Source: a virus
Direction: 5' to 3' (one strand)
Length of the DNA: 64,000 nucleotides
IMG/VR virus record: IMGVR_UViG_3300036760_000069
Span: 23,118 to 87,117 of that record
The notes under the pieces are model-generated. The model was not told the DNA's origin and made no database searches. It saw only the letters and a program-made list of their open reading frames with translations. Positions 12,430 to 52,925 of the stretch are shown one piece after another (within the stretch, counting starts at the first letter, position 1; each line of letters starts with the position of its first letter). A program made the position numbers and the translations under genes.

Positions 12430-15400
12430 TTATGGAAAGACGCCCTCGCCAGCGGGGACGAGATCCGCCAGCAAGGGTTTAGCCGGCGTCAGCCAGTGGT
12501 GGGCTTTGAGTTTGGCGATGAAGGCGCGGCGGTCGCCCTCTGGGAGGACTTGGAGCATGGTGGTCGCGTAGTAATTCTCGGCCCGTTGCAGGATGCGCCG
12601 CTCCGCCGGCTCCAGTTGCTTGACCACGGCGTCCCGGTCATTCTTGGTCAGCCCCCAGAGGGGAGTCTTATCCCGGAGCGACTGGTGCATGGTCTTTGAG
12701 GTGCCGCCCAGCTCCTTGTACTCGGCGCGGTATTTCGCCTCGGCGGCCGTGTCTCCGTACTTGATCGAGAGCGCGATGTTCTGCAAGGCCTCGCCCTTGG
12801 GGGTGCGCCAGTAGAGCCCGCCGTCGTCCTTCCCAAGGCGTTGCTTGTACTTGGCCTCGATGTCCTGCCAGCTCTGGTAGGCCGCCTGGTCGGGGTTGAT
12901 CTTTCGGATCCCGAGGAAGCCCGTCAGGTTGTCCGATCCGAGGTAGGGCTTGGTCGGCTTGCCGGCGAGGGCGCGTGCCTCCTGCCCAACGGTCGCCTGC
13001 TGGGCCAGATAGTCCCCACGGCTCTGCATCGGGCGCGGGTTAAAGACATCCGGGTAGGTGTTGATACGGCCCACCAGATCCACCGTGTCCTTGACCAGCG
13101 GGGTGATCCCCTGCCAGACCTTGTTGATCGGGGCGTGCCACGTCTTCTGCCAGATCTCGCCCAGCGTCAGGCGCCCATGCAGGTAGTCCCCGACCAGCCC
13201 GGGGGCCTGGTCGAGGCCGAACCACGACAGGGCATCCCCCAGCGCACCCAGGCCGGTGAAGACCGGGATGCTCCCGTCCTCCCGTTTGCCACCCAGAATG
13301 ACATGGATGCGGTTGGCGATCGTGGGGTCCGTGTCCTGCAATTCCCGCTCCTCGTCGTCGAAGACGAAGTTATTCCAGACCTGGAGCATCGTCCACAGGG
13401 CGGCGGCCCGGATCAGGAAGGCGGCGACCTTCTTACCAGCGACACCGGCCCCCCTCGCCCCTGCCCCGTAGTCGGCGTCCTCGAAGGCGTTCCGCAAGAG
13501 ATGGGCGTACCGGCCCATATTGACCTCCTGCCAGCTCCAGAAGGGGTACCAGAACCGCCGCAGGGTCTGACCCGCCACAGAAACCCGGTCGTAGGCGCCC
13601 AGCAGCTCGTTGGAGAGCTTAAACGCCCGATCCCGGATGTCTGGCAAGGCCATGACGGTCTCGCGCCTGGAGGCCCCCCAGTTCGCCGGGCGGCCCTCTG
13701 TGTTACCCTGCATCTGCTCCAGATAGTCGAGGTAGGCAGCGTACCGGAGCATGGCCTCGCGGTAGTCCGTCCCTAACCTCGCGGCTTTCCAGTATTTATT
13801 GAACGCTTCGACGGGCAGAGCCAGCGCGCCACCCTTGCCTTCGCGGTCGATCGTGGCCCGGAAAGCCTTGAGTTCGTTGAGATCGCCCATCTCCTGCACC
13901 TGGAGGGTGGACCCGTAGCCCCCACGCTCTGCCCATTCCTTTGCCTCGCCGGTCAGGGGTTCATCCTTGAACATGACGGGCCACATCTCTTTGATGGCCT
14001 GCTGGACCTTCTTGAAAGCCCCCGGGTTGCCGACGAACAGGGCATCCGAGTCGCCGGACAGGTTCCGCAGGTTGTACCCGATCACCCGCCGCGGGGCGAT
14101 CAGCATGACCTGCTTCCAGTGGGATAGGGCCGCCCGGTTGAGATCGACAAACCAGTTCGGTGCCGGCTGGGCCAGCTCGTCGAGCGTGACCGCCACCTCG
14201 TCCTTGACGACATACTGCTCGCGGGGCCCGCCCTGGGCCATCATCGTCCGGAGCATCTCCTTGGTCAGGCCCACCTCCTCCAGCGCGTGTTCGTGCAGGG
14301 CCTTGGCGAGCTGGGCGGGGATCGTGTCCGCCATGTAGAAGATGTTGCCCTCGCGGGGCTGCCAGAGCGTGTACCCGTCCGGGACGAGATCCTGCCAGGT
14401 CTTGTACGCCTTCCCCAGCACGCCCTTGATGAACGCTTTGCGCTCGCCGATCGCCTTGAAGATCCCCAGCGCGTGCATCTGGCCGGGGGATTCCGGGTCG
14501 TTGGCGATGGCCTGAATCTGCTCCATCGTCAGCTTGTCGGCCGGTTGCAGATCGAGCGCGTCCCGGAGGCGGTGCTGGTGCATCCCCAACCGCTGGCGGA
14601 AGTGCTTCATCTGGACGTCAATGAGGCTCACCCCGCCGGGGGCCGCCAGCTCGGCGTCGATCCGCTTTTGAAGGGTCTGCTGGTTGGCGGCCCGCGCCTC
14701 CCCCTTGAGCCGTTGCCGGATGTTATGGGCCTCGTCGACGCCCTTGATGACCTTGGCGAGCTGGGTGTCGTAGGCCATCTGGGCCATGACCTCGAACTCG
14801 GCCTGGATGTAGTTCGCGTTGATGTCGAAGGTGGACCCCTCACGCTTCTTGAGGAACCCCCGACCGGTCGGCGTCCGGAGCCGCTTGCCAGACCCAGCAA
14901 TCAACCGTTGCTCACGGGCATAGTCCAGTACCTGATGCCGGAAGTAGTCCTCCTTGGTCAGCTTCTTGCTCACATCGAACCCGATGGCGTCCATGGCCTT
15001 CTTGTAGTCGGTCGTCAGGCCCTTCCAGAGTTCCTTTCGAGCGGCCCAGGCGGCTCGAATAGCGGGATCCTTCTGGACGCGATCATCAATCCGTTCCAGA
15101 TCGTGCGTGACCGAGTCCGGCGTGTACTCGAACGGGAGTTTGTTCCCCTTCGCCGCTTCGTGCGAGAGGTCGGTCAGCAACGCCTTCCATTCGAGGTCGT
15201 CGTATTGCATTGGCGAGAGGGGCTTGACGATCCGCGCCAGTTCGCGCTCGATCCGGTCTGCCTGGATGCCCTTCTGCTTCGAGAGCTTGAGGAGGTCGTT
15301 GCGGAGCCGGCTGAACTCGGCGGTATCCGGCAGATGCTCGAACTCGCGGGAGGTCAGGCGCCAGACCTGCTTGAGATGCTCTTTGGCCCACTCCTTCCAA

Positions 15401-18400
15401 GAGATCGGTTGCAGACCCTTCTTGGCCTTGCGAACGCGAGCATCAATAGTCGGATTGGCCGATCTGAACCAGCCAGGCTTTGGCCCCTCGTTCACCTCCT
15501 TCCCGAGCGGCACGCCGCCACGCTCATTGAAGCGGCGCATCTTGGAGATACCCTCGTTCGGCACCCAGGCGAGGATGGCCTTGACGCCCTTGTTGATCGC
15601 AGCGTACTGCCGGCGGCGGCCGTCGAGAGCTTCGCCGCCTTCGCCGTCAATGATGATCGGGTACTTCCCGGTCGGCGTCTCGGTGGTCAGCTCGAGTGTC
15701 TTAGGGTTGACCGCCTTCAGCGTCCACTTGTCGCCGTACCCGCTGATGCCGTGGAGGTCGTTATAGTCGAGCTTGCCGAAGGAGTCCTTCAGGGGGAGGG
15801 TGTCGAGGTAGTCCTCGAACTCGGCGCGGGTGAGCGTGTCGCCTTGGACAGGCTGGCCTCTCTTGGCGCGACGATCAGGTAGTGCGGCGCGGGATGATAC
15901 CGCTTGGGCCGGACGCTGACGGCGGCCTGGTAGAGGGATTTGGGATTGTGCCCCGCCGCCTTCGCCTCCTTCAGGATGTGCCGCACCGAGTCCGCGTCCA
16001 CGAAATCGTTCATGGCCGGTGCTAATCTTCTCAAAAACGTCATGTGATTCTTCACCCTGAAAGGGTTTGAGTGTGTCGACGTCAGCGGCAATTTGTGCAA
16101 GGAGAGTTTTGGCACCATTGGGGCCTCCCATGTCGCCCAGCATCACCTCAAGGGCGGCGGCGCTTTCCTTGATCGTGCGGGCTTGATTGTAACTGTTGAT
16201 GGCGGCGAACGCTTCATTGTGCGGGCGCACGGACTGATGACTGATTTCATGCACCGCCGTCGAGATCACCATGGCGGCAAACTCTTTCGCCAGATTCTCC
16301 GGCGGAATCCGTCCGTTCAGCACATGCCCATTGACATCCTGGTAGATGTCGTAGGGGTTGATGAGAATGTAGTTGCTCTGGTCGCCCTTGAAGATCGAAC
16401 TCCCGCCGATGTTCACGCCGAGGTACTTGCCGATTCCGATCCCCTGGAAGACGACCGATCCGTACTGATCTCCGTAGGGGATCAGCGCCTTCTGGAGTGG
16501 CGCAAAGGCGCGGGCCATCATCAGCGCGAGTTGCTTGACATGCGGTTGGTCCGCCATCTCCTTCAGGATCTCCGGCGGCACGGTCTGCTCGGTGTCCATG
16601 AACTGGAAGTCCGTGCCGGGGACATCCGGGGCCTCCTCGAACGCCTTGCGGAACGTCTCCCGCTCCACATCCAGCGCGTCGGTGACGAGGTCTTGGATCA
16701 GGTACTTGCGGATGACGTCCTTTACATCGCCGCGCAACTTCTCCCGGTTCGTCGTGAAGGGGTAGCCCGTCTGCCCCGGCGTGCGGCGCGACCGGATGTT
16801 GGCGAGGATGGTATGCGGGAGCTTGAGCTTGTGCCCTTTGCCGAAGCTGACGTTGATCGTGAACTGGTAGAGGCCGTTGTTCAGGATCTGCACCTTGCCT
16901 GTCTCCATCTCGGCGGTGCCTTCCGCTGCGGAGAAGTCCACCTCGCCGCCCTGGAACTCCAGCGTGCGTGTCCGGGCCACGCCCATCGCCTTCCAGTTCT
17001 TCTCGGGGTTGATCTCCAAGCCCCCGATCGAGGCCGAGAGCTTGAGCGGCATCTGGTGAAAGGCCGTGACGTTCTCCAGCCACTTGCGAATCGCCGGCGT
17101 ATCGAACTCCATCTTGTCCGGGTACTTGAGCCGGACACGGGTGCCTGGGGTCGCGTCGGGATCGGCCGCCTTGATCGTGGCGGTCAGGCCCTTCTCCTGG
17201 TTCAGCCAGTCGGCCCCGGACCCGCTTAGATGCGTCTCAACCATGCCACGGGCCGGATCGTAGGCGACCGTCTTGATGTCGATGTTGTCGGCCCCGGCGA
17301 AGATGACCACCTTGGCGACCCCGAACATGCCGGCGGCGTCTTCAGTCTTCTTGCTCCCGCCAAAGTCCACCAGCTCCTTGAACGCCACATCAGGGAGCAT
17401 CCCGGTTCCCGTGTCGTCAATCGTGATCTTGTGATCGTCCGGGAAGACCTCGATCCGCACCATGGCCCCCGCTTTGTCGGTCAGCCCGCGGGTGCCGTCC
17501 GTGGCGTTCTGCACCAGCTCCTTGACGATGACCTTGGAGGGATGCTCGGAGTACAGGCCCTCGCCCATGGCCTTGATGCGGTTCGGGTCGATGCCGGCGG
17601 CGGCCCCGTGCCCACCCTCCTCTTTGACGACCTTGATATAGGAAACATCAGCACGCCCATATTGTGTATCTAACACGACCATCGCTGGGAACGACTTCGC
17701 CCCCAGTAACTTCAGCGCGTCGAAGCGGTGGCCGCCTTCCAACACATACGGGCCTGCCTTACTCCCATCCTCGACGACGATCAGCGGTTCGATTTCACCA
17801 GACTCCTTGATCGTGTTCGCAAGAGCTTCGACCTTGTGCTTCTCTGTCCGGGAATAGAATGAAGGCTTTCCATCGTCTTGAAATGCGGAGATCGGCACCT
17901 CGCGTACACCGTCAAGTATTTCGTACTTCGTCAGGCTGGCCTTAATGGAGGACTGGTTGGACGCCTCGCCCACCACCCGGCGCCCATCAACCACATTACC
18001 GGCCCGCTTGAACTTTGTCTTGAACGCCTTCATGTGGCTGGTGATCTCGCCCTGCCCCATCTCGGAATCCACGATCTCGGCGACGGGGTGGTTCGCCACG
18101 ATCTTTTCAAAGGCCGAGGCCCCCTTCTCGCCCGTCGGGATGAAGATGCGCGTCTTGAACTGGATGATCTCGCGGAACGCCCCGGCGGCCTCCAGCTCCT
18201 TCCACGCCCGCTCGACCCCGTTGCCCACGATCTCGATGCGCGTCTCGCCGGCGACGGTCTTGCGCTCGAACCGCCACCCGTTGACCAGCGCGATCTTGCT
18301 CCGCTTCTTGAGGATGGTGTCCATGGCCTGCGCGGGCGTCAGCGTCGGCAAGTCCACCGAGGCCCCCAGCCGGCGGAGAACAGCCGACACATCGCCCTCC

Positions 18401-21400
18401 CGGACCACCCGCCCCAGATACCGCTTGCCGGTGTCGTCCTGGACGCGCATGACTCGGACATGGTCCTGCGGGAGCCTGTCCCATATCGGGAGCAAGGTGC
18501 CGGAAATCAGATGCAGGGGTTCCTCGCGGTAGGGTGGATGCGTGTCAATCGTCTTCTTCCAGAGGGCTTTGCCGGCGTCTGGATTGATCGCCGCGTAGTG
18601 CTTGCTCAGGCCGTCCTCGTCCACATAGTAGTACGTCTCGGCGACGGGGCTGATGAGGCGGAAGTGTTTGTTGACGCCTCCCGTTTTCGGGTCCGTGCGC
18701 GTTCCGGTATAGACCGAGGCGAAGACCTTCTCGGTCTTGTTGCTCTGGACGTACCCCTGAAAGCCCTCCTTCTTCTCGACCTCCTTGGTCTGGACGAAGT
18801 TCACATCATGCTTGGTGTCCATCGAGACCATCGACGTTGTGGCGCCGCTGATCGGATCGCGGTAGACCTGTTGTTCCTTGATCGTCTTCACGCTGCGAGC
18901 CTTGTACGTTTCGAGACCCACATCGAGTTGTCCGAGCGAGGCCGCGTGGTCGATCGCCTGCTCCATGCGCTCGCTGAAAGCATCGAACACGGCGTTTTGA
19001 TCGTGGATCTCCAAGGCCAGAATCCGATTAAGAAACTGCGGGACTTTCGGGATCTTGTCCTCGTTGATGGACCCATCATCGGCGACAAGGCCCGTCAGCC
19101 CCATCTTGCCCTCGATCATCTCCTTGAAGTCCACGGTCGGGACTTCCCCGCGATGGGCGTCCAACACCAGTGCCCGCACCGCGCCTTGCGCGTATTTGTT
19201 TTCAAGGTTGTCTTTGGCGTTGATGAGGCCTGAGCTGCCCGTCTTGCGCTCGCCCTTGGTCATGGCCCCAAGCTGATCCAACCGGCGGCCGATGGTCGAG
19301 ATAAACCGCTTGTGCCCTTTCAGGTTCGTCATCACCAGCACATAATGCGGGGCATTGGCCTCGTTCGTGCGGTGTGAACGGCCCAGCCCTTGAATGAACT
19401 TTTCCGCCCGCCAGCCAGGTTGCACGCCATAGTGCCAGCGTTGCCGCTGGTTCTTGATACGCCGATCCGAATGGAAGCTGCGCCCAGTGCCGCCGGCGTC
19501 TGAAAAGACAAGGATCGACTTCTTATCAGCAAGGTATTCGTCTACCTCATGGGCGGCGAGCGAGGGTGAACGAGACTGGATCACCGTCTTCTCGCGCCCC
19601 AGATTGTCTTTGAGGCGCACCACGCGGCGGCTCCGACCCGTGACTTCCGCCACGGCGTCCGGCCCAAAAGTGTTGATGATGAACTCCAGCGGGCCTTCGG
19701 GTACCTTCAGCGACCCGACCGAGAGAAGCATGTCCTGCTTGAGCTGGATGGCGTCCTGGTTCTGCACGGGGTTGCCATCATGGTCCAGCACGGGGCGAGA
19801 CCGGATGTTCCCTTGCTCGTCCTGGTACTGCTCGTACTGTTGCGTCGGAAAGGACTTCTCCAGAAACTGCATCAGGGCATCGCGTGGCGTGAGATCGAGA
19901 TTTTCCAGATCGCCGTCTTCTTGCTCGGCGTTTTGGATCTGCCGCTCCATGCCCGCCTCGTTGGTGTTGACGAGTTGAGCGATAATGGCCTTGCCATCCT
20001 TGATCTTCGCTTCCATATCGGCGATGACGGTGGGCATCTGCATGGCCGTCAGCACCTGATTGAAGAACCGGAGTTCCGTGCCCCAGAAATTGGAGAGCAA
20101 GGTGGACTTGGCGCCCGCGTTCTTGGCCTTCCCGCCCTCGGTGACGCCCGTGAGTTCGAGGGCCTGATTGATGTTTGCCAATACCACCTGCCATGCCCGC
20201 GCCAGTCCGTTGTAGATGTCTTCTTGTTCTGGCGTCAACACATGCTCAAGAGTGCTATATGTGACCTCTGAGAAGTCGAGCGAGCGAGCGATATAGACGC
20301 CCATGGCCTTCATGTCACGGGCGACCACTTCCATCGCACCCAAACCGCCTTCCGTGATCTTCGCCGAGAAATCATTCTGGTCAGGGAAGGCCGTACCGGG
20401 CCCCCACAGACCGAGCCGTTCAGCATACCCCAGCGTGTCTACCGAGTTCGCGCCGGTCGCCGAGGCATACACAATGCGAGCCTTCGGCACCTGCTTGCGG
20501 AGGTCAAGGGCCGCAAGAGCCTGGATGGAGGCTTGCTGGTGGATGCCACGCGCCCCCATCGACTGCGTGGTCTTTTGCATGTTATGGGCTTCGTCGAACA
20601 CGATCACGCCATCGAAGTCTTTGCCGAGCCACGCTAGGATCTGATTGACCCGCGATTGTTTGGGCTGGTTCGTTTTCTTGTCTGTAATGGGAATGACCTT
20701 GCCGGTCTTATCCGTCATTAAGTTGGAGCGGATCGTGGCATAGGTGGTGAACATAATGCCCTTGGGTTGGTCGATCGGTTCGCCGAGTTTGGTCTTGCCG
20801 AGTTCAAAAACTTGGCCCTTGTCGCCGCCAATATCCACCCAGTCGCGCTTGGCGTCGGCTATGAGCCTAGAAGACTCCGAGACCCAGATGGCTTTCTCGC
20901 GCCCGTTGCGGAAGTTATCCAGAATGACGGCGGAGATCTGCCGGCCCTTCCCGACCCCCGTGCCATCGCCCAAGAAGAAGCCCTTGCGCGTCCCGTCTGA
21001 CAGAAATAACTCATGGGCCTGTCCTGCGTACACGGGCGTCTCGAGCTGGGCCAGCGAGAGGGCGCCGGAATCAATCAGATCCTGCGGCAGGTTGGGCGTG
21101 TAGGTCGGATCGGGCGGGAGCGTGTCCGCCATGGCCGCCGACTCTACCAGTTTGCCAGGGTGCGGTTTGGCACCAGGAATCCGCACCTTGGGTGGTTGGT
21201 ACTCGTCGTAGACGGCGTCGGTGAGTTCTTTGGTCGTGCTGGGGAACTTGGATTCAGGTTCGCTGGAAGCGACGACCGTTATCCCGGACTGAACGGGTAT
21301 ATGGGCGGGTACGTTCCCTTCATCCGCGGGTCGTCCCGCAGGCGCAGGTCGAGGGCCTCCAGTACCTTCACCGCCGCCCGCCTTGGGCTCATGGCCTTGG

Positions 21401-24400
21401 ATAGGTCGCTCTCCTCCAGCAACGGGGAGTCCGGGCTCTCTGGGCTGTTGAGGAACCACTCCAGCGCCCTCTTTCCGTCCGGGTACGCGAGGAGGCCGTC
21501 CAGTTTCTGTCGCAGGATGTCGCTGTCCCCCCCCGGCGGTGTGGTCAACCGGCCGTGGTCGAGTCCCCACATCGCCAGTTGGAACAGGTACGGCAGATCC
21601 GGGTCCGGTTTGGCCCCCGCCACCTTCAGCCACCGCTTGGCCTCCACGTTGAGCGGGTGGTCGTTGTTCGTCTGGTCGGGTCGCTTGTCCTTCAACGCTG
21701 GGGCGGTCATCGCGCACCTCCTTGAGGAGATTGAGGGCTTCATAGGGGTTCTCGGCCTTCCCTGTTACCACCTCTACTGAAGGAGAGGGGGCCACTTTAT
21801 CGAAAATCAAGATGCGGTTGTCAAAATCAGTGCCGTATTTCTTGTACCCCTTGCCGGACATGACCACGCTGGCACGAAGCTGGTACTTCTTGGCGAGGGC
21901 GTCGATGGCGCGGGAGACCCCCTCGGACTGCCCCATGAACCCCTCGCCGATCAGGGCGACGAGTCGCCCATTCGGGGCCAGGAGCTTCAGGGCCTGGTCG
22001 ATGTGTTTGCTGATGGCGTTGGTACTCTTGCGCTCGCCCGTGATCCGGCCGGCCGTCGAGGAAAACGGCGGGTTCATCACGATCACCGTGGGCGTGACTT
22101 TGAGGATGTTGGCAATCTGTTCGGCGTTCTCCGTCGTCACCTTGTTGAAGACGATGGTATTGAGGAGTCCGGCCCGCCGCGGCGAAAGTTCGTTGACATC
22201 CACATCGGCCCCGAAGTTCTTGGCGAAGATCGCCAGCCCACCCAAGCCGGCACTTGGCTCCAGCATGACATCCTTGGGGGTGATGTGCGCCGCCCAGTTC
22301 ATCACGAACGCCAGATCCGGGGGGGTCGAGAACTGTTGGAACTCGACCATCTCCGGCGTGCGTCTCGTCCCCTGCGACGGGATCTTGTCCATGATCTGCT
22401 CACGCAGGTAGTTGAGCATCTCCCGCGCTTTTATGAGGCTATAGGTGGTGGGTCTGTAGACGCCATCAGGGCCCAGCATCTCGCCGATGAAGCGGTTGAT
22501 CCCCAGCTCGAGGGCATCATTCAGATCCTTGACGGTGTAGGTGCCGTCCGCCTGTGTGCCCCCAAAGTCCTCATTGGCTCGCGTGACCAGTTGATCCATG
22601 CTGAACGACAGTACACCAGGCGCCGTGTCCTCTTTCAGGCGTTCCTCGACAAAGTAGGCGATGTTCATACTCGCGCCGACGATCTTCTGCTCCGTGGTCG
22701 CTGGAGCTTCAACCGCCGGGATCGTGGGCTCGTCGGGTAAGACCGCGCCGCGCCCGCCCTTGGTGAGCAGGTCCGCCTTCTCCTGATCGGTCATGGCGGG
22801 CTTCGGAGCGGGCAGGCTGGGGGTCGTCGGGCTGGGCGTCTTCGGTTCGCTGGCCTTGACCTGTGAATCGTAGAAGGCATCCAACGCAGACTTCTCGCTC
22901 CCGATCGGACGATCAGGCGTCCCCGGCATGAAGCCCCATTTTGAGCCATCTGGGCGGTAGATGTTCCATTCCTTGCCGGTGCGCCGTGCAGTCCACCCTG
23001 CGGCGAGAAATTCATCCTTGGTCATGTCGGCAGGGTTGGCCGTTGGGACGGTCTTTGTCTCTGGCACCAGCCCAGGCGTCTGAGCTTCGGCCTTCTGCGG
23101 ATACTCGTCAGGGTGGTGCGCGAGCTTGTACTTCGCGTCCTCGATCGCCCGCTCCCATCGTGCCCAGTCGTCCGGGTAGCCGTGCGTTTCAAAGTCGTCG
23201 AGGCCGGCTTGCGCGACTTCGATGATTCGGTATGGATCGCCAGCATTCTCGGCCTTTGTCAGGGCGCGCTTGTGCTTGCGGTAGAGATCCTGCCGGAAGT
23301 CGCCCGTGGGGGCCTTGTCCTCGTCCTTCCAGCCGCCGGGAGGGGGCTTGTCGGCGACGGTCGGACGCTCAGGAGAAGGCAGGCCAGGAGCGGCATGGTG
23401 TTCGGCCTTGGGTGCTTCCGGTTTTGGCTCCTCTGGTGTTTTCTTGGCGACAGGTCGATAGACTTGGATCCCCTCATCCCCTCGTTGAATAGCTTCGTAG
23501 AGACGGTTATTGCCATCAATCACCTCGCCCGCATGATCCAGCACAATCGGGCCATTCGTCATTGACCCTCGCGGAACAAACTCGGCGCCATCCCAGAGCA
23601 TCTCGTTACCTTTACGAAGTGATTCGATCGGCACTCTTGCCTGTTCCCACTGTGAATCGGTGAGATGGGCGTCCTCGTTCTTGTTTGTTTTACGTCCCAG
23701 CTCCGTGTACCCGATAGCGTTCTGAGCGGACTCTGGGAGTTCCTTAAAAGCCAGCGTCTTTATCGATTTGATTTCCTGTTTGGGGATTGGGAATCCTGGT
23801 GCGGCAGGGCGTTCGGCTTTGACTTCTGGTTTTGGCTCCTCTTTTGAGGGCGCAGAACCGGAACCTGCCGGCATCGTCAGCGCATCCTGCACCTGCTTCT
23901 TCTGCTCATCGCTCAGGCCGTTGTACGGGCGCCCGAACAAACCACGTGCTGCCTCGTTCGGCGTGGCATACTTCTTGGGCGAGAGGGCCTCATTCGCCGT
24001 CTGCCCCTTCCCGACCGTGAAGTTCGCCTCGGCGGCGGCGGCGGCCTCCTCCATCGACGGGTAGGTGCCAAGCGTGTCCTTACCGCGAATGTCCCACGCC
24101 TCAAACTGCCCGTCGTCGCGCTCAATGACCATGGCCTTCGGCTTCTCAGGATTGCCGCCGGCCCAGATGTAGGTCGATTCGCCAGGTACGGCCCCATGTT
24201 CCCACCCCGCCGGCAAGCCTGTCGTTGGTTCATTCGCCGGAGCCACACCTTGCTCAGTTTGGGGGGCTGGCAGGCCAGGAACAGGGGTAGGTTGAATGTC
24301 GGAGACCCTATCCGCACGCTTCTTCAGGAACGGTTCGCGTTGAACTGGAGCCAATTCTGGCGGAATGGCGGCTACTTCGGCCTTGGCCCGCGCATTGACC

Positions 24401-37781: not shown

Positions 37782-37822
37782 GGGTTACCTCTCGTCTTTC
37801 GGTCGTTTGTAGAGCATTTCTT

Positions 37823-41695: not shown

Positions 41696-43547
41696 TCACG
41701 GGCTCCTGTGTTTGGGGCATGACATCGAGAATATCCAAGAAGCGTCCAACTTGTTCCCGCGTGGTCGGGTCTGACAAGTTTAACTGCCCGCTCTGCACCA
41801 TGCGCTGCACAGACTGGGCGGCCTGTTTCGGCGAGAGCTTGGTTTTCGCGTTCGGATTCGTCACCGACTCCAGCCACGGCTTGAGCGCGGATGAGGTCGG
41901 CTGCGGAAGGTCCTTCCAGCCATGTTGCTCGGGGAAGGCGGCATCGATCATCTTCACCGCCTTTTCAGCCGCAGGCCCTAGCGGCTCTTTGCGTGCCGCC
42001 GCCGCGTCCATGAGGTCCGTCCACATCTTTTGCACGTTGCCTACGCGAGGCGGGGGATTGTCCAAGAACAGGGAGTTCGAGATTTTGTGCTTGCGGTCGA
42101 TGATCTTGTACTGCGCTTCGACTTCCGGCTGGCGGGACCAGTGATCGGCCCGAGCCTTGCCCAACAGCTTCTCGTTGAGGTCAAGGTTCGCTTGCTGCTG
42201 ATCCCAATTCAGGCGCGGATCGGTAAGTTGGGTCGGCTTGTAGGGCACGCCCATATACAGCCCGCGCTGGATGCGGTTGAACACATCCACATCACCGACG
42301 CCGCCAGCCTTCTTTTGCGCCTCCAATCCGTTTAGGAGTGCCCGGTACTCGTCCCGATGCTCGGTAAAGGTGCCCTGACGGACTAACCCCTCCAAGGTTT
42401 CCGTGTTGAGTTCACCATTTTTCAAGGCGGTGTAGGCGTCGTTGATCTGTTCACCTTCGCGCTGCATGACCGCCTTCTCCTGTTCCTTGTCCTTCCGTTC
42501 ATGGTCGAGCCTGATGCGGTCCTGTGTCGAGTGAATCGTCCCCAGTACCTTGCCGTAGGCTTCCGGCGAGAGGTCCTGGTTCGCCAAATCATCCTCAGAG
42601 AGCCGATTCGCCACAGCCAGCTTCATTAGACTGACTTCCTTCTGCTTCCCGCGCTGCTCTTGGAGCTTCAAATATCCGCCAGAACTGATCCGCCCGGTCG
42701 CCATCGCCACATCGAGATCAGCATCGATCACATCTCTTTTCATCGCAATACGTGCAGTCAGTCCTTGTTCGTTCGCTTTCTGATGTTCCTCGATTGCGGT
42801 CTGGCGTTCCGTCAAGGTCAGTCCGGCCAGTTCTGGACTGTCCACGGTGAGGCCGGACAGCCGTGCGAGCACGCCCGTGGGATTACGCTGGACCTCTTTG
42901 TCGCCCAAGCCCTGCACCATGTGGACCGTGGATTCCGCCATCCCATCATGCACCGCCTGATCGCTCATGGCGTTTCCGCGCAGGCCCGTATAGGCACTGT
43001 TCATACGTTCAATGCCAGCTGCTTGCACGTTCGGATTGTCCGCATTCACGATGTCCTGGACCGCTTGGTCTGCTGACATCTTGGCGGTCGCCCTTGCGTT
43101 CTCGCTGATGGCCTTGGTCGCCCGCAGTTCCAGATGGGGCGTGCGGACGGCATCATGTTGAGCGAGCGACGCAGCGATATTAGCCCCCAGAAGTTCATCG
43201 TCGCCGCCGTATTGACTGATGACCCTCTGCCGTTCCTTTGCCCATCCAGCGTAGGTGTCTTTTTTGGCGAGATCAGGCCGAAGCTGATTGCCATGAAATA
43301 TCTGCTCAGTCATCTCACTCGTGGACTGGATATAATCAGCCGTTGCTTGAGCCGTGACGGTATGGGCAAGGGCTTGTTGGGTCAAATAGTCGCGGTGCGC
43401 CTGAATCTTGACGACATCCACTCCGACCCGTGATGCCGTCTCCCCGATCTGTGATCCGAACGCCTCCGCCGTGGGCGCCGCCGTCAGCCGCGCACTCGGA
43501 ATCGGCCTGAGCTCTTCCCGTGCTTGTTCTGCTGGAACTCTTGGCAC
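41676..43547 (-). CDS. internal virion/ejection protein (block A)
   Basis: MPRVP start, helical; position like T7 gp15. Confidence 0.7.
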   Translation of the reverse strand: MPRVPAEQAREELRPIPSARLTAAPTAEAFGSQIGETASRVGVDVVKIQAHRDYLTQQALAHTVTAQATADYIQSTSEMTEQIFHGNQLRPDLAKKDTYAGWAKERQRVISQYGGDDELLGANIAASLAQHDAVRTPHLELRATKAISENARATAKMSADQAVQDIVNADNPNVQAAGIERMNSAYTGLRGNAMSDQAVHDGMAESTVHMVQGLGDKEVQRNPTGVLARLSGLTVDSPELAGLTLTERQTAIEEHQKANEQGLTARIAMKRDVIDADLDVAMATGRISSGGYLKLQEQRGKQKEVSLMKLAVANRLSEDDLANQDLSPEAYGKVLGTIHSTQDRIRLDHERKDKEQEKAVMQREGEQINDAYTALKNGELNTETLEGLVRQGTFTEHRDEYRALLNGLEAQKKAGGVGDVDVFNRIQRGLYMGVPYKPTQLTDPRLNWDQQQANLDLNEKLLGKARADHWSRQPEVEAQYKIIDRKHKISNSLFLDNPPPRVGNVQKMWTDLMDAAAARKEPLGPAAEKAVKMIDAAFPEQHGWKDLPQPTSSALKPWLESVTNPNAKTKLSPKQAAQSVQRMVQSGQLNLSDPTTREQVGRFLDILDVMPQTQEPVNAGPAR

Positions 43548-43551
43548 CGGC

Positions 43552-44082
43552 TTATCCCTTCATCCCGTACTTCGCCAGCAGCAGCGACGAGCCCGCCGTC
43601 AGGAGCGTGTTGGACGCTTGGTTGGTCCCCGTCATTTCCGCGTAGCGCCCACGGTTCCGATAGTCCTGCGCCTGCACCTTGAACCCCCACGCCTCCCGCG
43701 CCGCGTTGTTTTTGATCGTCATGGCGTCCAGTTCGCCGAGATAGGCCGCGTCCGCCTGCACGTCCACGGCCGAGCTGCCGGGGTCGTTGATGTCCACGTT
43801 CTGTGCGGCGAGTCCCGCCCGCTGGGATCCGATGACTTGCTTCGTGATCCGCCCACGTCGCTTCGCCGCGACCACCCCGCGCTCGATCGCGTCCGTCGCC
43901 TGGTACTCCGCCGCCTGCGCGTTGTAGTCGTACATCTCGCGCTGGGCCCCGCCAGCCTTCGACTGTGCAAAGGCGCTGCTCCCCGCGCCCAGCAGCGTGG
44001 CGAACGGCCCCAGCCAGGACAAGTCGAACCCGCCACCAGCCGCCGCTGATCCACCCTGTGTATCCGGCCAGTTTGCGGCCAT
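43552..44082 (-). CDS. internal virion protein, gp14-like (block A)
   Basis: QRAGLAAQNVD..GS..DV...ELDAMTIKNNAAREAWG. Confidence 0.8.
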   Translation of the reverse strand: MAANWPDTQGGSAAAGGGFDLSWLGPFATLLGAGSSAFAQSKAGGAQREMYDYNAQAAEYQATDAIERGVVAAKRRGRITKQVIGSQRAGLAAQNVDINDPGSSAVDVQADAAYLGELDAMTIKNNAAREAWGFKVQAQDYRNRGRYAEMTGTNQASNTLLTAGSSLLLAKYGMKG

Positions 44083-44085
44083 GCG

Positions 44086-46983
44086 TTACCCTCCTGCCAC
44101 GAGATGCGGCACAATACTGAGGATCGTGATGGGTAAAGGATTGGTCTGCCGCACGAACACCCGCCCCCCCGTATTCCATGCGGCCTTCGTGATGATCTCC
44201 GGCTTGCCGGTGAGCAGCAGCATGAGCGGATTGAACACGCTCGTCGTGCGCTGCTTGTACTCCGTCAGATGATCCACTTCCTGCCCAGCCCAGATGCCCC
44301 GCGAGGCCTCCACATTGAGTGTCACCGACGTAATCAGCTTCTTCTTGTCGAGCAGCGTTTCCGTGCCGATGAGTTCCATGTCCAGCGTTTCAAAATCCGC
44401 CGTGATCGGGAGCCCCGCATGCACCACCACCGCCGGGCTGCTGATCGAAAACGCGCCCGCCGTTACCGTGGTCAACGGCGCATCCACCCCGTTCGTGACC
44501 ACCCCCCCGTCCGCCAGAATCCCAATGGACTTCGCTTCCAGGTGGTCGACCCCCGAAAATTCGTCCACCGCCTTCCCCCACGTCGTTTTCGCGACCGCCC
44601 GCAGGCCCGCCGGCACCGTCTTATCCGAGCGCCCTGTCACGACCGTTACGGACGAATAGGCGGTAATCGTCAAGCGGATTGAGTCTGTCACTTCCCCATA
44701 CGTCTCGCTGTCCACGTCCGCATCTACGATGTCCAGCACAATCACGTTGTCCACGTCGCCCGCCACGAAGTAGCCCACGCTCGCCGTCAGGGTCAGCGTT
44801 TCGTCATACGTCCAGTTCGTCCCGCCCGAGAGCATCATCGTGGTCGCGCCGGTGTTCCGACCGTCGTAGGTGAGGAACGAGTCCAGGAACAGCGCGTCCG
44901 TCACGACATTGGTGATGGCGCGGCTCGCCGACCGCTCCAGGGATCGCCTGACCACCCCGTTGATGGTGCGGTTGACCAACCAGTAGAGCGCATCCTCTCC
45001 GCCCTCCGGCACAACGCAGATATCCTCGTAGTCCCCGTCCGTGTCGTGGCGATGCCAGCCCCAGACATCGTGATCGGGCAGGTAGGTGAGCCCGATCACG
45101 CCCCCGTCGGCCCGTGTCACCCAGACGATGGAGTTGGGAATCTGGGCGTAGTCCATGTGCTCAATCGTGAGCCCGTCGAACAGGTGCGGCGCAAAGATGC
45201 TCAGTTCCTTGCTCTTGGTGCCTTCCACCAAGTCCTTGCGGAAGTCGCGGATGATCGAGCCGCGGGCCTGCACATAGAGCAGGGAGCTGCCAATAATGAC
45301 GGGGGCCACTTCGGCTGACCCGTAGTACGTCTTTTGCTTGGGGTTCGGCGATTGCGGCACCAGGACCCCGTTCGCGTCCCCCTGCACGATCCACTCCCCC
45401 CCGGAGGTCAGCAGCACGAAGTCATCCACCTCCACCATGTGGCGCACTTCATTGACCTTGCGCCCCACCGCCGAGAACGTCACTGCGTCGTCGTCCTGGA
45501 GTGGCGAGCGAATGGTAAAGTTCTTGAACGCCCCCGAGCGCGAGCCCCACACCTTTTCCGGCTCGTTCAACGTGCTGGCATACAGCTTGCGCTGCTGGAA
45601 ATAGCCTGAGGTGGCCGGATACGCCCCGCTGATGCTCAGGCGCCCCTGCACGGCCTGTGTGGGGGCCGTCGTGGCCCGCAGGCGCACGTTGTAGGCGGTG
45701 GCCGGCACGTTCGTCCCCGACCCGGCAATCGCCCAGGCCCCCGCCGGTCGGTACTTGCCGATGGTGTTCCCCGTTGCCAGAAAGGACGGGGCGGTGGAGA
45801 TGGTCCCCGCCGTCCACGCCGCGCCGTCCCAGAATTCCACCACATAGACCGGCGAACCCGTCTGAATCTGGGACACGGCAAAGTTGATCGGCACCGGCAA
45901 GGTCGGCTTGACCGTGAAGCTGGCAATGCAGCCGTCGTTGGCCGTGGTCGAGAACAGCGTGAAGTTGTCGCTGGCCGAGAGGGTTTCCGTCGTCGTCCCG
46001 TTGTTCCACGACCCCTGGCTGATCAGATCCCCGAACGGCGCCCGTGGAATGGGCGGCGTGTTGAGAAAGTCCGGCTGGACGGCGTTGTTGTCGTTGAAGG
46101 TGGTCTCACTGGCCGTGCCGACGTACCCATAGATGCCGTCTCCTGCCGTCGTCGTCGGGATGGCCTTCTGCCGGTAGACGTTGTATTCCTGGGCCCCCGG
46201 CACCGCCGTCCACGTCACCACGTTGGGCGCGGCGGATGTCGGATCGGCCTTGTCCGTGATCGTCGCCGCCGCCGAGGGCTCGCTCTCCTCGAACGTTTCC
46301 TCTTTGATCGCCGTCACCTTGTAGAGAAAGTCCTTACCGACCCCGGTGCCGCCAGCGACGGACGGGCTGGCCGGCGCCGCCATGCTCGGGGCCGTCGTCA
46401 CGACCGTCAACGTCCAGGCCGTGTGCCCGGTCCGCGCCAGATCACGCGGGGCATAGTTGCGATGCGTGATCGTCACAATGTCGCCAGACTGCGAGATTTG
46501 CAGCGTCTGGAGATCGGCCTCGACGTAGGGTGTGGGGATTTCGTAGATCGAGCCGGTGAGCGGATACCAGTAGGTCGTGTTCGGCGGCGCGTTGCCCGTT
46601 GTCGCCGCCACGCAGTAGTAGTTCACGCCGCCCGACGAGGCCAGGTCGCCGATCACGTAGGCCGTACCCGCGCCGTAGGCCGCGATGCCGGACACCAGCA
46701 CCAGCGCCCCGTCCCGCACGACCCGCATGGACAGGTCCTCAAACCACAGCACGTAGGTCTGCTCGTCGTTAAAGACAAACTTCAGCAGGCGGCCCCGCTT
46801 CGAGGAGTCCTTTTGCACGTCGATGTACTTGGTGCCGGGACGGTTCGACACGCCGCCATGCCGGCGCACAATGAAGTTCCGGCAGGTCCGCAGCCCAGTC
46901 TGGTACTTGACGAGATCAGCCCGTCCAAATAATGCGGGGGCGACTTCCCCGCCGGCAAAACTTCGCTGGATTAAACTGGGCAC
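44086..46983 (-). CDS. tail tubular protein B / nozzle (block A)
   Basis: QRSFAGGEVAP.L.GR.D, GGVSNRPGT, YP...YFQQR, WGWHRHDTDG. Confidence 0.9.
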   Translation of the reverse strand: MPSLIQRSFAGGEVAPALFGRADLVKYQTGLRTCRNFIVRRHGGVSNRPGTKYIDVQKDSSKRGRLLKFVFNDEQTYVLWFEDLSMRVVRDGALVLVSGIAAYGAGTAYVIGDLASSGGVNYYCVAATTGNAPPNTTYWYPLTGSIYEIPTPYVEADLQTLQISQSGDIVTITHRNYAPRDLARTGHTAWTLTVVTTAPSMAAPASPSVAGGTGVGKDFLYKVTAIKEETFEESEPSAAATITDKADPTSAAPNVVTWTAVPGAQEYNVYRQKAIPTTTAGDGIYGYVGTASETTFNDNNAVQPDFLNTPPIPRAPFGDLISQGSWNNGTTTETLSASDNFTLFSTTANDGCIASFTVKPTLPVPINFAVSQIQTGSPVYVVEFWDGAAWTAGTISTAPSFLATGNTIGKYRPAGAWAIAGSGTNVPATAYNVRLRATTAPTQAVQGRLSISGAYPATSGYFQQRKLYASTLNEPEKVWGSRSGAFKNFTIRSPLQDDDAVTFSAVGRKVNEVRHMVEVDDFVLLTSGGEWIVQGDANGVLVPQSPNPKQKTYYGSAEVAPVIIGSSLLYVQARGSIIRDFRKDLVEGTKSKELSIFAPHLFDGLTIEHMDYAQIPNSIVWVTRADGGVIGLTYLPDHDVWGWHRHDTDGDYEDICVVPEGGEDALYWLVNRTINGVVRRSLERSASRAITNVVTDALFLDSFLTYDGRNTGATTMMLSGGTNWTYDETLTLTASVGYFVAGDVDNVIVLDIVDADVDSETYGEVTDSIRLTITAYSSVTVVTGRSDKTVPAGLRAVAKTTWGKAVDEFSGVDHLEAKSIGILADGGVVTNGVDAPLTTVTAGAFSISSPAVVVHAGLPITADFETLDMELIGTETLLDKKKLITSVTLNVEASRGIWAGQEVDHLTEYKQRTTSVFNPLMLLLTGKPEIITKAAWNTGGRVFVRQTNPLPITILSIVPHLVAGG

Positions 46984-46989
46984 GGGCGG

Positions 46990-47598
46990 TTATTCTCTCG
47001 CCCTGATGAAAGCACTTTCCGGCTCCTCCGACTGTTGCTGTTCGTTCCCGGCCTGCACCTTCGCCTTGCCGAGTATCGCCACGTAAATCCCCATGGCCGT
47101 CTGATCCATCTTGGGGATGCGTGAGAGCGACGGCGCAATGTACGCCGCCAGCCGCCACGACACGGCATCCACGAACAAGGGCGAGAACAGGTTGACATCC
47201 GTGACGCGCTGCGTGTACTCGATGATCGTGTCCTGCACGTCCGTCCAAATCAGCCGGCCCTGATCGTCCAGCCCGGGCCGCCACGGCGGCGGGTTCGGGT
47301 CGTTCCGCCCCAGCACCGTCACAATGCGGCGCACATGAATGCAGTCCGTCGGGTAGCGATACCCGTAGAGCCAGTCGTAGGGCGTTGTCACGTCGGAGTT
47401 GTCCGTCACCAGCGCGAGCGTGCCGTACTTCGTCGCCAGCGGCCACGGGAAGTCCTCCAGCGTCGTTTCCACCGCCTGATCGAAGTACAGGTTGCACTGC
47501 TGCGCCTCGGTCGAGAGTTCGGTGAGCAGGCTGATGAGCTGCGAGCTGCCGGTATGCCCGATCGCCATGTTGGCGATTTGGACCTTTGTTATCGCCAT
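46990..47598 (-). CDS. tail tubular protein A / head-tail adaptor (block A)
   Basis: VQIANMAI, WPLATK, YRYPTDC, F..AVSWRLAA. Confidence 0.88.
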   Translation of the reverse strand: MAITKVQIANMAIGHTGSSQLISLLTELSTEAQQCNLYFDQAVETTLEDFPWPLATKYGTLALVTDNSDVTTPYDWLYGYRYPTDCIHVRRIVTVLGRNDPNPPPWRPGLDDQGRLIWTDVQDTIIEYTQRVTDVNLFSPLFVDAVSWRLAAYIAPSLSRIPKMDQTAMGIYVAILGKAKVQAGNEQQQSEEPESAFIRARE

Positions 47599-49902: not shown

Positions 49903-50142
49903 CTACTCCGTGTACGTCCGGCTCTCGATGGCCGTCTTCATCGCCGCAAAGGTTTTCGCGCCGTCTGTTTTTGCCGCGAGCCGCATCGTGATTTTCAGCC
50001 ACGATTGAATGTCGTCATCGGTAATCGGCTCGCGGAGCTCGCTCCACGCCACGTCCTCGCGGCGCACTCCCGCGAGGGCCGACCACTCAACCGTGAGGTG
50101 CTCGCCCCCCGCGCACCGGCTCAGAATGCGGATCGTCGCCAT
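49903..50142 (-). CDS. hypothetical protein
   Basis: Compact ORF in the operon. Confidence 0.65.
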   Translation of the reverse strand: MATIRILSRCAGGEHLTVEWSALAGVRREDVAWSELREPITDDDIQSWLKITMRLAAKTDGAKTFAAMKTAIESRTYTE

Positions 50143-50146
50143 CAGC

Positions 50147-50524
50147 TCACCGTATCTGCGAAAACGTCCGCCGCATGAGCAGCTTGCCCGTCATGGAGGT
50201 CGTCCCATCCCCCGCGCTCACCCGCGGGCGGATTTTATAGACCAGCTCCGTCACCGTTTCACATTTCCCAGCGGTCGTAAGCGACAGCGCATTGCCCTGC
50301 GGGTCCGTCAGCGTCCCCCAGGTCGTCTCCGTGGTCTCCAGCGTACCCTCAAACACCATCGCCCCCGGACCGGGTGTGCCGATCATCTGCACGGTCCGGT
50401 CGGCCATGTGCGCGTGAATCACCGGCTGCCCGTCGTCGCCGGCCTGCATGTTCGGCCAGGTAAAGATGATCAGCTCGCCCTGAATCCGGCCGACCCGCTG
50501 CTCGGCGTAGGCAATCGTCGCCAT
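50147..50524 (-). CDS. putative small virion structural protein
   Basis: TW..M..GDDGQP..ADRTVQ..G....EG...W..LTDPQG...IRP. Confidence 0.65.
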   Translation of the reverse strand: MATIAYAEQRVGRIQGELIIFTWPNMQAGDDGQPVIHAHMADRTVQMIGTPGPGAMVFEGTLETTETTWGTLTDPQGNALSLTTAGKCETVTELVYKIRPRVSAGDGTTSMTGKLLMRRTFSQIR

Positions 50525-50895
50525 CAGCCTTCAAGCACGATCTGATCGCTGCTGCCGTGGTGCTGGTCGCCGCCGTAGAGTACCTCCGCCGTGTCCTGCT
50601 TCTTCGCGGCTGCGGACGGCTCCAGCGCCATGTCCGTAATCTGCAACTCCAGCGAGCGATACAACTCGTCCCCGCGCTGCGAGGCCGAGACGGATTTGAC
50701 TTCCACGCTGGCCATGAGCATCATCGTCTGCCCCACGGTCGGCAGCGCCGGCAGGCCCAACTTCTCCAGCGCGTCGTCGTCCACGGTCAGGCACAGGCCC
50801 CACGGATAGCTCGGCGCGTCCGGCCCCGTCACCAAGGACGGCTGCGCGTACTCCTTCTGCTCCGCCGGCGACATCTTCATGCTCTTGAGTTCCAT
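50524..50895 (-). CDS. capsid staple-like protein (block A)
   Basis: YPWGLCLTVDDDALEKLGL..LP.VG...LELQITDM...AEVLYG. Confidence 0.7.
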   Translation of the reverse strand: MELKSMKMSPAEQKEYAQPSLVTGPDAPSYPWGLCLTVDDDALEKLGLPALPTVGQTMMLMASVEVKSVSASQRGDELYRSLELQITDMALEPSAAAKKQDTAEVLYGGDQHHGSSDQIVLEG

Positions 50896-50914
50896 TAGGT
50901 CTCCCTCCGGTGTG

Positions 50915-51235
50915 TTATCCGTGCTCGATCGGGCCGTACTCGACCGCGATGCTCTGCGTGCCGAGGTAGGCCACGCCGTAGCCCCAGAGGTAGTAGAAGC
51001 GCGTCCATCCGCGTAGGGTGGGCGGGATGTCCAGTTCGACACGCCAGGCCCCGGAGAGAATGGTGATATGCCGTTCGAAGCGGAGAATCCGCAGGTTGCA
51101 GAAGTCCGGCGCCGTCACGATGAGCTCGACTTCCGCCGCTTCGTCCGTGCCATAGACCATCCCCCGCACGACACAATCCGTCGCCGATATGGGCATCGCG
51201 CCAGCCAGCCAGAGCGTGAGGAGCAGGCCGATCAC
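50915..51235 (-). CDS. secreted-looking hypothetical protein
   Basis: N-terminal hydrophobic signal; GTGA coupling. Confidence 0.55.
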   Translation of the reverse strand: MIGLLLTLWLAGAMPISATDCVVRGMVYGTDEAAEVELIVTAPDFCNLRILRFERHITILSGAWRVELDIPPTLRGWTRFYYLWGYGVAYLGTQSIAVEYGPIEHG

Positions 51236-51741
51236 CGCCCCGCGCCTTCCTTCTGGATCGCATAGGTCGTCTTGACCCATTCGACTAACGCGGCGTAGCG
51301 GTCCCGGAGGTCGGCGAAGGCGCGGGCGTCCCCGGCATGGGCGCGTAGGACCGTAGCGGCTTCAAGGTCGGCGGCTCCTGCAGCAGTTCCGCCGGCGGGA
51401 CCGGCGGCGGCGGACAGACGGTTCGCGTCGTCCCACACGCGCTCAAACTCACGATCAAGCAGACAGGCAGGATGAGGCGAATCCACATATTTGACGACCT
51501 CCTTTTCGACCGTCTCGGTGATCACTTGCGTCTCGCCCTTCACTCGGATGTACCGCGTCACGACGGATGCCGTGTTCTCTTCCGCCTTGATGACGTTCTC
51601 CGCCGCCTGCACGGCCTGGACGGCAATCGCCGCGTCCCACTCGATCTGCTTCCGATGCTCGCCATAGGCGATCAAGCCCAAACAGAACGCCGCGAACGCC
51701 AGTACGATCAGGCCATACTTGATCAGCGGTCCGTAGCCCAT
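51232..51741 (-). CDS. i-spanin (Rz-like)
   Basis: N-terminal TM; ITETVEKEVVKYV...CLLD. Confidence 0.75.
   Translation of the reverse strand: MGYGPLIKYGLIVLAFAAFCLGLIAYGEHRKQIEWDAAIAVQAVQAAENVIKAEENTASVVTRYIRVKGETQVITETVEKEVVKYVDSPHPACLLDREFERVWDDANRLSAAAGPAGGTAAGAADLEAATVLRAHAGDARAFADLRDRYAALVEWVKTTYAIQKEGAGR
51285..51488 (-). CDS. embedded o-spanin lipoprotein (Rz1-like)
   Basis: LIVSLSA-C lipobox; Pro-rich PPAELLQEPP; AAGGAGG SD inside Rz. Confidence 0.8.
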   Translation of the reverse strand: MWIRLILPVCLIVSLSACGTTRTVCPPPPVPPAELLQEPPTLKPLRSYAPMPGTPAPSPTSGTATPR

Positions 51742-52018: not shown

Positions 52019-52536
52019 TACGCCTCCCTCGTGATCGGCGGCAGCAGCGTTCTGTAATTCAGCGCTTGGAAGTGGCACGGATCGAAGCTCGCGTACTCGT
52101 CCCCGGGCCGGTCCGGGCGGGGATGCCCCAGCGCGTCGATCCCGCACATCTCTGCAATTCCCCACATCGTCGTGATCGTCCCGGTCCAGTTAGGGTGATC
52201 CTGGGACATCAGCGCATGCCCGTTCAGCGGGTACACGTCCCCCGCCAGACCGAACGGATGCGGCCCCTTGCCGGAGCCGGGAGGCACCTGCGTGACCACC
52301 AGCTTGGGCGCGTACACCGTCCACGCATGCGGATCTGACGAATCCTCCCCGACCGGACAGTGCCGCCCGATCTTCCAGACCTCCCACTCCCGATCGCGGT
52401 CCCGGACCGTGTCGCCCAGCGCGAACGGGATGCCCGCCAGGTCCAGGTTGTCGAGGAACATCTCGAACGGAACGCGAAAGCCTTGGGCGAGCCGCGCCGT
52501 TTTCTCGGCATACCCTGGCTGGGCTCGCCAGTTCAC
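52018..52536 (-). CDS. M15-family peptidase endolysin (cassette A)
   Basis: HPFGLAGDV and FDPCHFQ Zn-ligand motifs. Confidence 0.8.
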   Translation of the reverse strand: MNWRAQPGYAEKTARLAQGFRVPFEMFLDNLDLAGIPFALGDTVRDRDREWEVWKIGRHCPVGEDSSDPHAWTVYAPKLVVTQVPPGSGKGPHPFGLAGDVYPLNGHALMSQDHPNWTGTITTMWGIAEMCGIDALGHPRPDRPGDEYASFDPCHFQALNYRTLLPPITREA

Positions 52537-52925
52537 GGCTTGACCTCCGGCACCGACACCGGATCAGCCGGCGCATCGATGCCGAGCAGCTTACACACCC
52601 ACCGCGTGATGATCTTGGAGCCCAGCTCCTCGATCTGAAAGATCAGCCGCCCGCCCATGTGTCCGGCCACGGCCACCAAGGCCGACGTGAGCGCCGGCTT
52701 CATCCCGGCGGCGTCGCACAGAAAGAACGTGACCATGCCCGCAAAGATCGCAATCGCGCACTCCGCCGTGAACTCGATCAGCGACACCCGATCAATGATG
52801 CCGCGCTTCAGCTTCTGGATGTAGGACACCACGTTCCCGAGCACGCTCAGGAAGATCACCCACAGCCACGCCGCAATGCCGTAGCCGGTCGTCGTTTTGA
52901 TGCTGTCGAATACCTGTAGGTCCAT
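52533..52925 (-). CDS. holin (cassette A)
   Basis: Three hydrophobic segments; FAGMVTFFLC...AVAGHMGGR; AAGGAG SD. Confidence 0.8.
   Translation of the reverse strand: MDLQVFDSIKTTTGYGIAAWLWVIFLSVLGNVVSYIQKLKRGIIDRVSLIEFTAECAIAIFAGMVTFFLCDAAGMKPALTSALVAVAGHMGGRLIFQIEELGSKIITRWVCKLLGIDAPADPVSVPEVKP

Follow-up and report, generated by a model that had tools for sequence, protein, structure and literature searches.

Two podovirus tail modules in one 87-kb virus record: a very probable chimera of two unrelated phages

The stretch of DNA analyzed here (the window, 64,000 nucleotides) comprises bases 23118–87117 of the IMG/VR virus record IMGVR_UViG_3300036760_000069 (G000, 87,117 bp) and raises the question of whether one phage carries two complete tail machines behind a single head. 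A first-pass annotation of the window had described two divergent sets of lysis, tail, and ejection genes, here called block A and block B, together with only one set of terminase, portal, scaffold, and capsid genes. It had proposed two explanations: one phage with two kinds of virion or with alternative tails for the same head, or a recombinant or assembly chimera with its join inside the fibre gene or directly behind it. The open reading frames (ORFs) that it named lie where it placed them, are open, and are found on the minus strand. Two divergent adaptor and nozzle sets are indeed present in the window, that of block A by membership in phrog_394 and phrog_376 and that of block B by fold. 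One phage equipped with two tail machines would be remarkable if true; the evidence instead points to a chimeric database record. Very likely, G000 combines, through a repeat-mediated misassembly, two different podophages of one sediment metagenome, referred to below as phage X, which contributes block A and the head module of the window, and phage Y, which contributes block B. Positions are those of the window unless they are given as positions of G000.

G000 is classed as linear with a CheckV completeness of 100, and all of its substantial ORFs are on the minus strand. Self-comparison and base-level alignments show that the record both starts and ends inside internally recurring sequence, which results in the layout R1-S1-R2-S2-R1′-S3-R2′. 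In this layout, R1 corresponds to G000 1–214, S1 to G000 216–27844, S2 to G000 27972–59598 (window 4855–36481), and S3 to window 36697–63873. The repeats that fall within the window are as follows:

4728–4854, no strand: R2 (G000 27845–27971), within the gene for a DNA methyltransferase of 468 amino acids (aa; 4007–5413)
36482–36696, no strand: R1′ (G000 59599–59812), the join, codons 362–434 in the distal part of a 504-codon fibre ORF
63874–64000, no strand: R2′, the record end, within a truncated methyltransferase ORF (63300–63998)

R1 and R1′ are identical at 212 of 214 positions, with an exact match over the first 115, and the similarity falls off past 214 bp, to 86% over 423 bases. R2′ consists of the last 127 bases of G000 and is an exact copy of R2. 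The last ORF of the record, in which R2′ lies, is a truncated paralogue of the R2 methyltransferase (53% protein identity). The distance from R1 to R2 (27,971 bases) is nearly equal to that from R1′ to R2′ (27,518 bases). A k-mer length of 127 is a common top size in metagenome assemblers, and the combination of identity that begins at the first base and ends at the last base with a repeat of exactly 127 bases is the trace of a de Bruijn graph path that ended at a shared node.

The appearance of a single head holds for the window and fails for the record, because the window boundary hid the first 23 kb of G000. Upstream of the window, G000 1–23117 carries a second head set, in which a further portal and major capsid protein (MCP) are found together with an ORF of the size of a large terminase subunit (TerL) and an ORF resembling a small terminase subunit (TerS). 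The following features of phage Y belong to this region:

G000 10187–11131: major head protein, 314 aa (phrog_1357)
G000 13214–15235: portal, 673 aa (phrog_1216)
G000 18320–19846: TerL-size ORF, 508 aa (weak PHROG match, E value 0.0086)
G000 19935–20139: tRNA-Thr(CGT) and tRNA-Met(CAT), directly upstream of the TerL-size ORF

The 508-aa ORF is 33% identical to an ORF that adjoins the portal in a relative described below (G004) and is probably the second terminase. Besides the TerS-like ORF and the two tRNAs, S1 contains fibre genes and a series of small structural genes; the final fibre gene runs off the first base of G000. This location also explains why block B had seemed to lack an obvious full fibre of its own: phage Y has its fibre genes in the first part of the record, which the window does not include, and the final one is cut at base 1. 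Neither the family hits nor the sizes of the ORFs in S1 point to an adaptor or nozzle. The nearest cultured relatives of the phage Y portal, of the Roseobacter CRP-212 type, are ~22% identical, and with this portal identity of 22%, Roseobacter phage CRP-212 was set aside as too distant for a comparison of synteny.

In the record as a whole, portal, MCP, TerL-size ORF, adaptor, and nozzle are each present twice, and a blastp comparison between the resulting two sets of hallmark genes detected no similarity. Between S1 and S3, protein similarity is limited to the fibre tip, a 310-aa gene, and the methyltransferase, and their proteins are otherwise unrelated. At the nucleotide level, a third patch shared by S1 and S3 is observed, which is 41 bp long and 97.6% identical (G000 5853–5893 and window 50105–50145). 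A megablast search of block A and block B against 50,697 phage records gave no match.

Block A and the head module of the window together form S3, the part of the record assigned to phage X. Matches to protein families or similarity support the roles that had been given to its fibre, internal virion proteins, nozzle, adaptor, staple, Rz-like spanin, and holin, and the features of phage X are the following:

36267–37781, minus strand: chimeric fibre ORF, 504 codons, with a T7-type N-terminal anchor (phrog_1640)
37823–44082, minus strand: internal virion (ejection) proteins of 1290 aa (37823–41695, minus strand, phrog_6651), 623 aa (no family hit), and 176 aa (43552–44082, minus strand, phrog_418)
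44086–46983, minus strand: nozzle of the tail tubular protein B type, 965 aa (phrog_376, E value 2e-193)
46990–47598, minus strand: adaptor of the tail tubular protein A type, 202 aa (phrog_394, E value 1e-41)
50524–51042, minus strand: staple like Gp10 of epsilon15 (PF21628)
51232–51741, minus strand: Rz-like spanin
within 52533–53204, minus strand: LydA-type holin (PF16083)
54814–61945, minus strand: head and packaging module
54814–55833, minus strand: MCP (phrog_212)
56009–56689, minus strand: scaffold/protease-like protein
57283–59415, minus strand: portal
59911–61392, minus strand: TerL
61379–61945, minus strand: TerS

The portal of S3 is ~45% identical to the portals of epsilon15, phiV10, and Tyrion, and its nozzle is ~39–42% identical to those of 39–45 kb Pseudomonas and uncultured podophages. 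In the 42-kb genome of the Purivirus UFJF_PfDIW6, nine G000 proteins find a match; all nine are encoded in S3 and their order is kept, and no protein of S1 or S2 has a match in this genome. Phage X is present in G000 only as S3, the arm of an epsilon15/Purivirus-like podophage that carries the genes for structure, lysis, and packaging. As a candidate for the remainder of phage X (a segment S4), a 19.8-kb IMG/VR contig (G001) matched by an exact 49-mer from R2 was considered and rejected; it shares only ~184 bases of methyltransferase sequence, at 83% identity.

The join of the suspected chimera can be placed at 36482–36696, inside the fibre ORF itself. Codons 1 to ~361 of this ORF derive from phage X and encode a T7/epsilon15-type N-terminal anchor, codons 362–434 are the shared sequence, and codons 435–504 are contiguous with S2 of phage Y.

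The adaptor and nozzle of block B are recognized at the level of structure. Neither protein belongs to a Pfam or PHROG family at E ≤ 0.01, and homologues of both are present in metagenomes. AlphaFold2 models were built from alignments of these metagenome homologues and compared with known structures by Foldseek. The two genes are:

33244–34152, minus strand: phage Y adaptor, 302 aa (adaptor fold in the model; no family hit)
31657–33240, minus strand: phage Y nozzle or tail hub, 527 aa (model with a fold of the P22 gp10, Pa223, and SU10 type)

The model of the 302-aa protein, with a predicted local distance difference test (pLDDT) score of 88.6, matches the adaptors of cyanophage A4 (9k09_d, E value 4e-8), VP1, SU10, and GP4 and the KP32 tail tubular protein A, with 8zkk_B, 7z47_A, 8jov_G, and 5mu4_B among the chains found. 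The model of the 527-aa protein (pLDDT 76.8) matches the nozzles or tail hubs of Pa223 (9nwi_Y, E value 6e-18) and P22 (gp10, 8eap_D, E value 1e-14) as well as those of SU10, VP1, Sf6 (gp8), and T7 (gp12); the chains 7sg7_S and 7ey7_s are also among its matches. Both proteins do have the folds that had been proposed for them, and on the strength of these predicted structures, the 302-aa protein is a podovirus adaptor (T7 gp11/tail tubular protein A fold) and the 527-aa protein a podovirus nozzle.

Which of the two heads belongs with block B is indicated by relatives of phage Y. Scans of IMG/VR with single proteins (the phage Y portal, the phage Y nozzle, and the phage X portal) returned no relatives, and only an alignment-based scan with the family of the 302-aa protein gave some, at 11 loci. 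These loci and three full records were compared with all proteins of G000. The first record (G003, 40 kb) encodes on one strand a portal, an MCP, and four more genes of S1 type, followed by ~9 kb of variable genes and then by genes of S2 type, namely homologues of the 302-, 527-, 144-, and 295-aa genes, the giant protein, and the S2 exonuclease. In the second (G004, 23 kb), the order is an S2-type 450-aa gene, an S1-type TerL, portal, and MCP, an S2-type 107-aa gene, the adaptor, and the N-terminus of the giant protein. G004 thus ties S2 to S1 at both sides, as a circular map of phage Y predicts. In the third (G002), five S1-type genes are followed by five S2-type genes. A portal of the phage Y type is found in three of the five records with block-B-type genes, and one of the phage X type in none of the five. 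A tblastn search with the phage Y nozzle against the 50,697 phage records gave no match, though ~200 of these carry portals or nozzles of the phage X type. Homologues of the phage Y adaptor are located on contigs of 52–67 kb, which fits the 59.6 kb of S1 and S2 combined.

The gene content of the segments agrees with this pairing. S1 has a head without an adaptor or nozzle, S2 has no head genes and supplies the reverse, and the two are complementary; S3 is self-sufficient. When base 1 of G000 is joined after G000 59598, the proposed closure of phage Y, an uninterrupted fibre frame of 538 codons is obtained. Each part also occurs elsewhere without the other: records of the phage Y type lack the phage X portal, the Purivirus genome matches only proteins of S3, and a sequencing run from a second study has S3 without S2. 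In that run, all eight unitigs that align over their full length without a mismatch fall in 37276–44914, within S3, and none falls in the equally long part of S2. In the relatives examined, homologues of block B were consistently accompanied by a head module other than that of the window. Two virion types, or a tail swap on one head, are not borne out, as head modules are present twice in the record and, in relatives, either tail set is accompanied by the head that belongs to it.

Together, these observations outline how the record very probably arose. Phage Y would consist of S1 and S2, which close as a circular map of ~59.6 kb. Its order would be the TerS-like gene, tRNA-Thr and tRNA-Met, TerL, portal, MCP, small structural genes, and fibres, followed by small, possibly lysis, genes, the adaptor, the nozzle, PAPS reductase, HNH endonuclease, the giant protein, and replication and methylase genes. 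Phages X and Y would have two short, near-identical patches in common, the fibre-tip R1 and the methyltransferase R2. The assembler would have circled phage Y once, passed from Y to X at R1, and halted on meeting R2 again. We infer that the join of S2 to S3 is present in no real molecule.

Read-level evidence comes from Logan contigs, an assembly with k = 31, of which 73% was read for the probable source run. A contig of 31,323 bp with a depth of 12.0 corresponds to S2 (4967–36289) and ends at the fibre stop codon. A second, of 19,909 bp with a depth of 14.6, corresponds to S1 and touches 36666–36740 with seven mismatches. From the ends of these two contigs, the independent assembly breaks either side of the join. 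A third contig (6920 bp, depth 11.7) covers part of S3. Among the Logan contigs listed, none bridges 36289–40779, an interval that is nearly uncovered; with 73% of the run read, this is no evidence of a break. Tetranucleotide profiles correlate at 0.94 between S1 and S2 and at 0.87 between S2 and S3, in weak agreement with the assignment of S2 to phage Y.

Several points weigh against a misassembly of two phages. The depths of the three segments show no step in coverage at the join, and the depth of S2 lies nearer that of S3 than that of S1. Tetranucleotide profiles differ only modestly, and the first 9 kb of S1 are slightly nearer to S3. The join S1-R2-S2 likewise runs through a repeat; the contig by itself therefore does not establish the pairing of S1 with S2, which depends on the relatives and on gene content. 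If the assembler used read pairs, some of these may have backed the path from S2 through R1 to S3. Finally, the remainder of phage X was not found, and an exact 40-mer from R1 had no match in the metagenome contigs searched.

One rival reading is a real recombinant, a circular genome of ~59 kb formed by S2 and S3, in which an epsilon15-like head and tail arm is combined with the adaptor, nozzle, and giant protein of the phage Y family. Exchange at the patches that the two phages share, in the fibre tip and the methyltransferase, would have produced it, and it would be a true genome with two tail sets and one head; S1 would then come from another phage of the Y family, the other half of which was left unassembled. 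The near-equal depths of S2 and S3 (12.0 and 11.7, with 14.6 for S1) and the path that the assembler itself took, from S2 to R1 to S3, are as expected for such a genome, and both R1 and R2 are possible recombination points. A 311-aa protein of phage X is moreover 61% identical to its homologue in the Y family, so the two lineages exchange genes. We nonetheless consider this recombinant unlikely. It requires an unseen second half of a Y-family phage with another adaptor, nozzle, and giant protein. S1, which lacks an adaptor and nozzle, and S2, which lacks a head, complement each other exactly. Block B is never paired with a phage X-type portal in the relatives examined, S3 occurs without S2 in the second sample, and composition places S2 with S1.

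Even less probable is a real single genome of at least 87 kb with both structural sets, that is, with two terminases, portals, capsid genes, and tails. The roughly equal depth of the three segments and the CheckV estimate of full completeness speak for it. Both ends of the record, however, lie in truncated genes that copy internal ones, and closure would need a further duplication. The two halves also match different phage families with different genome sizes (39–45 kb and 52–67 kb), and a tailed phage in which packaging and head genes occur in two unrelated sets is not known to us. A similarly slim chance is given to two phages with an identical 31.6-kb core, S2, that differ in having S1 or S3 as an arm and were laid out as a linear contig from a bubble in the assembly graph: the layout resembles such a linearized bubble, but S2 has the depth of one arm, 12, and not the sum of S1 and S3 (~26), so it is not a core common to two phages, and the objections to an S2 and S3 genome hold here too.

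With G000 read as a misassembly, the remaining genes of block B belong to phage Y. S2 contains methylases, nuclease-like genes, a 4615-aa polyvalent protein, a CxxCxxCC protein, an HNH endonuclease, and a PAPS reductase in addition to block B, and the features around the adaptor and nozzle are:

34152–36310, minus strand: small genes between the phage Y fibre and adaptor, 183, 115, 93, 70, 112, and 107 aa
26281–31109, minus strand: post-nozzle genes, encoding proteins of 278, 144, and 295 aa, PAPS reductase, HNH endonuclease, the CxxCxxCC protein, and a protein of 399 aa
28174–29019, minus strand: PAPS reductase
27765–28190, minus strand: HNH endonuclease
27461–27772, minus strand: CxxCxxCC protein
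12430–26277, minus strand: giant polyvalent protein, 4615 aa, with AAA_34 and Helicase_C_4 (Sbno/DarB-like helicase), ParB_N, and DnaJ

Several functional labels of the first-pass annotation fare less well in this region than in block A. PHROG and Pfam searches gave no hits for the ORFs of 183, 115, 93, 70, 112, 107, 194, 278, 144, 295, and 399 aa; the 183-aa "M15-like peptidase" and the "GNAT" protein have no family hit, and the labels "pilot" and "ejection protein" find no support, the genes after the nozzle including the PAPS reductase and HNH endonuclease instead. The small genes upstream of the adaptor may be lysis genes. For the holin and spanin pair that had been placed here, inspection of the sequences offers candidates: the 70-aa protein with two transmembrane segments (34896–35108) could be a holin and the 112-aa protein with a lipobox-like motif (34451–34789) an o-spanin. 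The 107-aa gene has a homologue that adjoins the adaptor in G004, and homologues of the 278-, 144-, and 295-aa, PAPS reductase, and CxxCxxCC genes adjoin the adaptor and nozzle in relatives. The 295-aa protein (29022–29909, minus strand) has a Gly-rich hydrophobic C-terminal tail, GAGIGAGGAIIGAGIIAI, and is encoded next to the nozzle in several relatives; it may be a membrane-inserting ejection protein. The 194-aa ORF after the nozzle (31073–31657, minus strand) has an implausible sequence, no homologue in relatives, and a local GC content of ~0.57, and this stretch may be noncoding. Phage Y also encodes two HNH endonuclease paralogues that are 55% identical (9785–10219, 144 aa, and 27765–28190, 141 aa, both on the minus strand).

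The giant protein that had been reported at the end of block B is present and can be described further as a polyvalent protein, with an Sbno/DarB-like helicase at aa 1705–2457, ParB_N at aa 2792–2867, and a weak DnaJ match. It is conserved in the phage Y family, the homologue in G003 being 55% identical over the C-terminal 1000 aa. In its set of domains, it presumably resembles the giant proteins in the virions of Bcep22-like phages.

In phage X, a 311-aa protein without a family hit is encoded between the MCP and the holin (52997–53932, minus strand). The Y-family gene to which it is 61% identical is found in G003, it is 39% identical to the copy of phage Y itself (G000 8445–9377), and it has no counterpart in the Purivirus relative. 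Judged by these identities, it looks like a structural accessory gene that was exchanged between the two podophage lineages. The near-identical fibre tip and methyltransferase patch in two otherwise unrelated podophages of one sediment similarly suggest a common host and recent exchange.

The probable chimeric nature of G000 matters for users of the record, which IMG/VR lists as one 87-kb virus that is 100% complete by CheckV. It should be split at 36482–36696 into a complete novel podophage of ~59.6 kb and a fragment of 27.5 kb. G000 resembles chimeric contigs from de Bruijn graph assemblies in that it starts and stops at internally recurring sequence, has one repeat of 127 bases, and contains the single-copy hallmark genes of viruses in two full sets, with halves that match different virus families. 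It differs from such contigs in lacking a clear coverage step, because both phages are present at ~12–15x. One partner, phage Y, is complete, so the artefact resembles one oversized genome and not a simple end-to-end join.

Compared with podophages of the epsilon15, phiV10, and Purivirus type (39–45 kb), phage X is alike in the identity of its portal and nozzle and in its Gp10-like staple, and its TerS, TerL, portal, scaffold, MCP, adaptor, nozzle, and fibre anchor are arranged in the same order as in UFJF_PfDIW6. In contrast to these phages, it has a lysis cassette between the capsid and tail genes, the extra 311-aa gene shared with the phage Y family, and a fibre tip shared with phage Y; only 27.5 kb of it is present, whereas its complete relatives span 39–45 kb. 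Phage Y is similar in its predicted folds to podophages with a T7 gp11-type adaptor and a nozzle of the P22 gp10, Pa223, VP1, or SU10 type. Its adaptor and nozzle share only 6–15% sequence identity with the solved chains, its adaptor is ~90 aa longer than the solved ones, and, unlike the podophages with solved tails, its genome encodes a 4615-aa polyvalent protein. Phage Y is a member of a barely described podophage lineage, the adaptor and nozzle of which are recognizable by fold alone.

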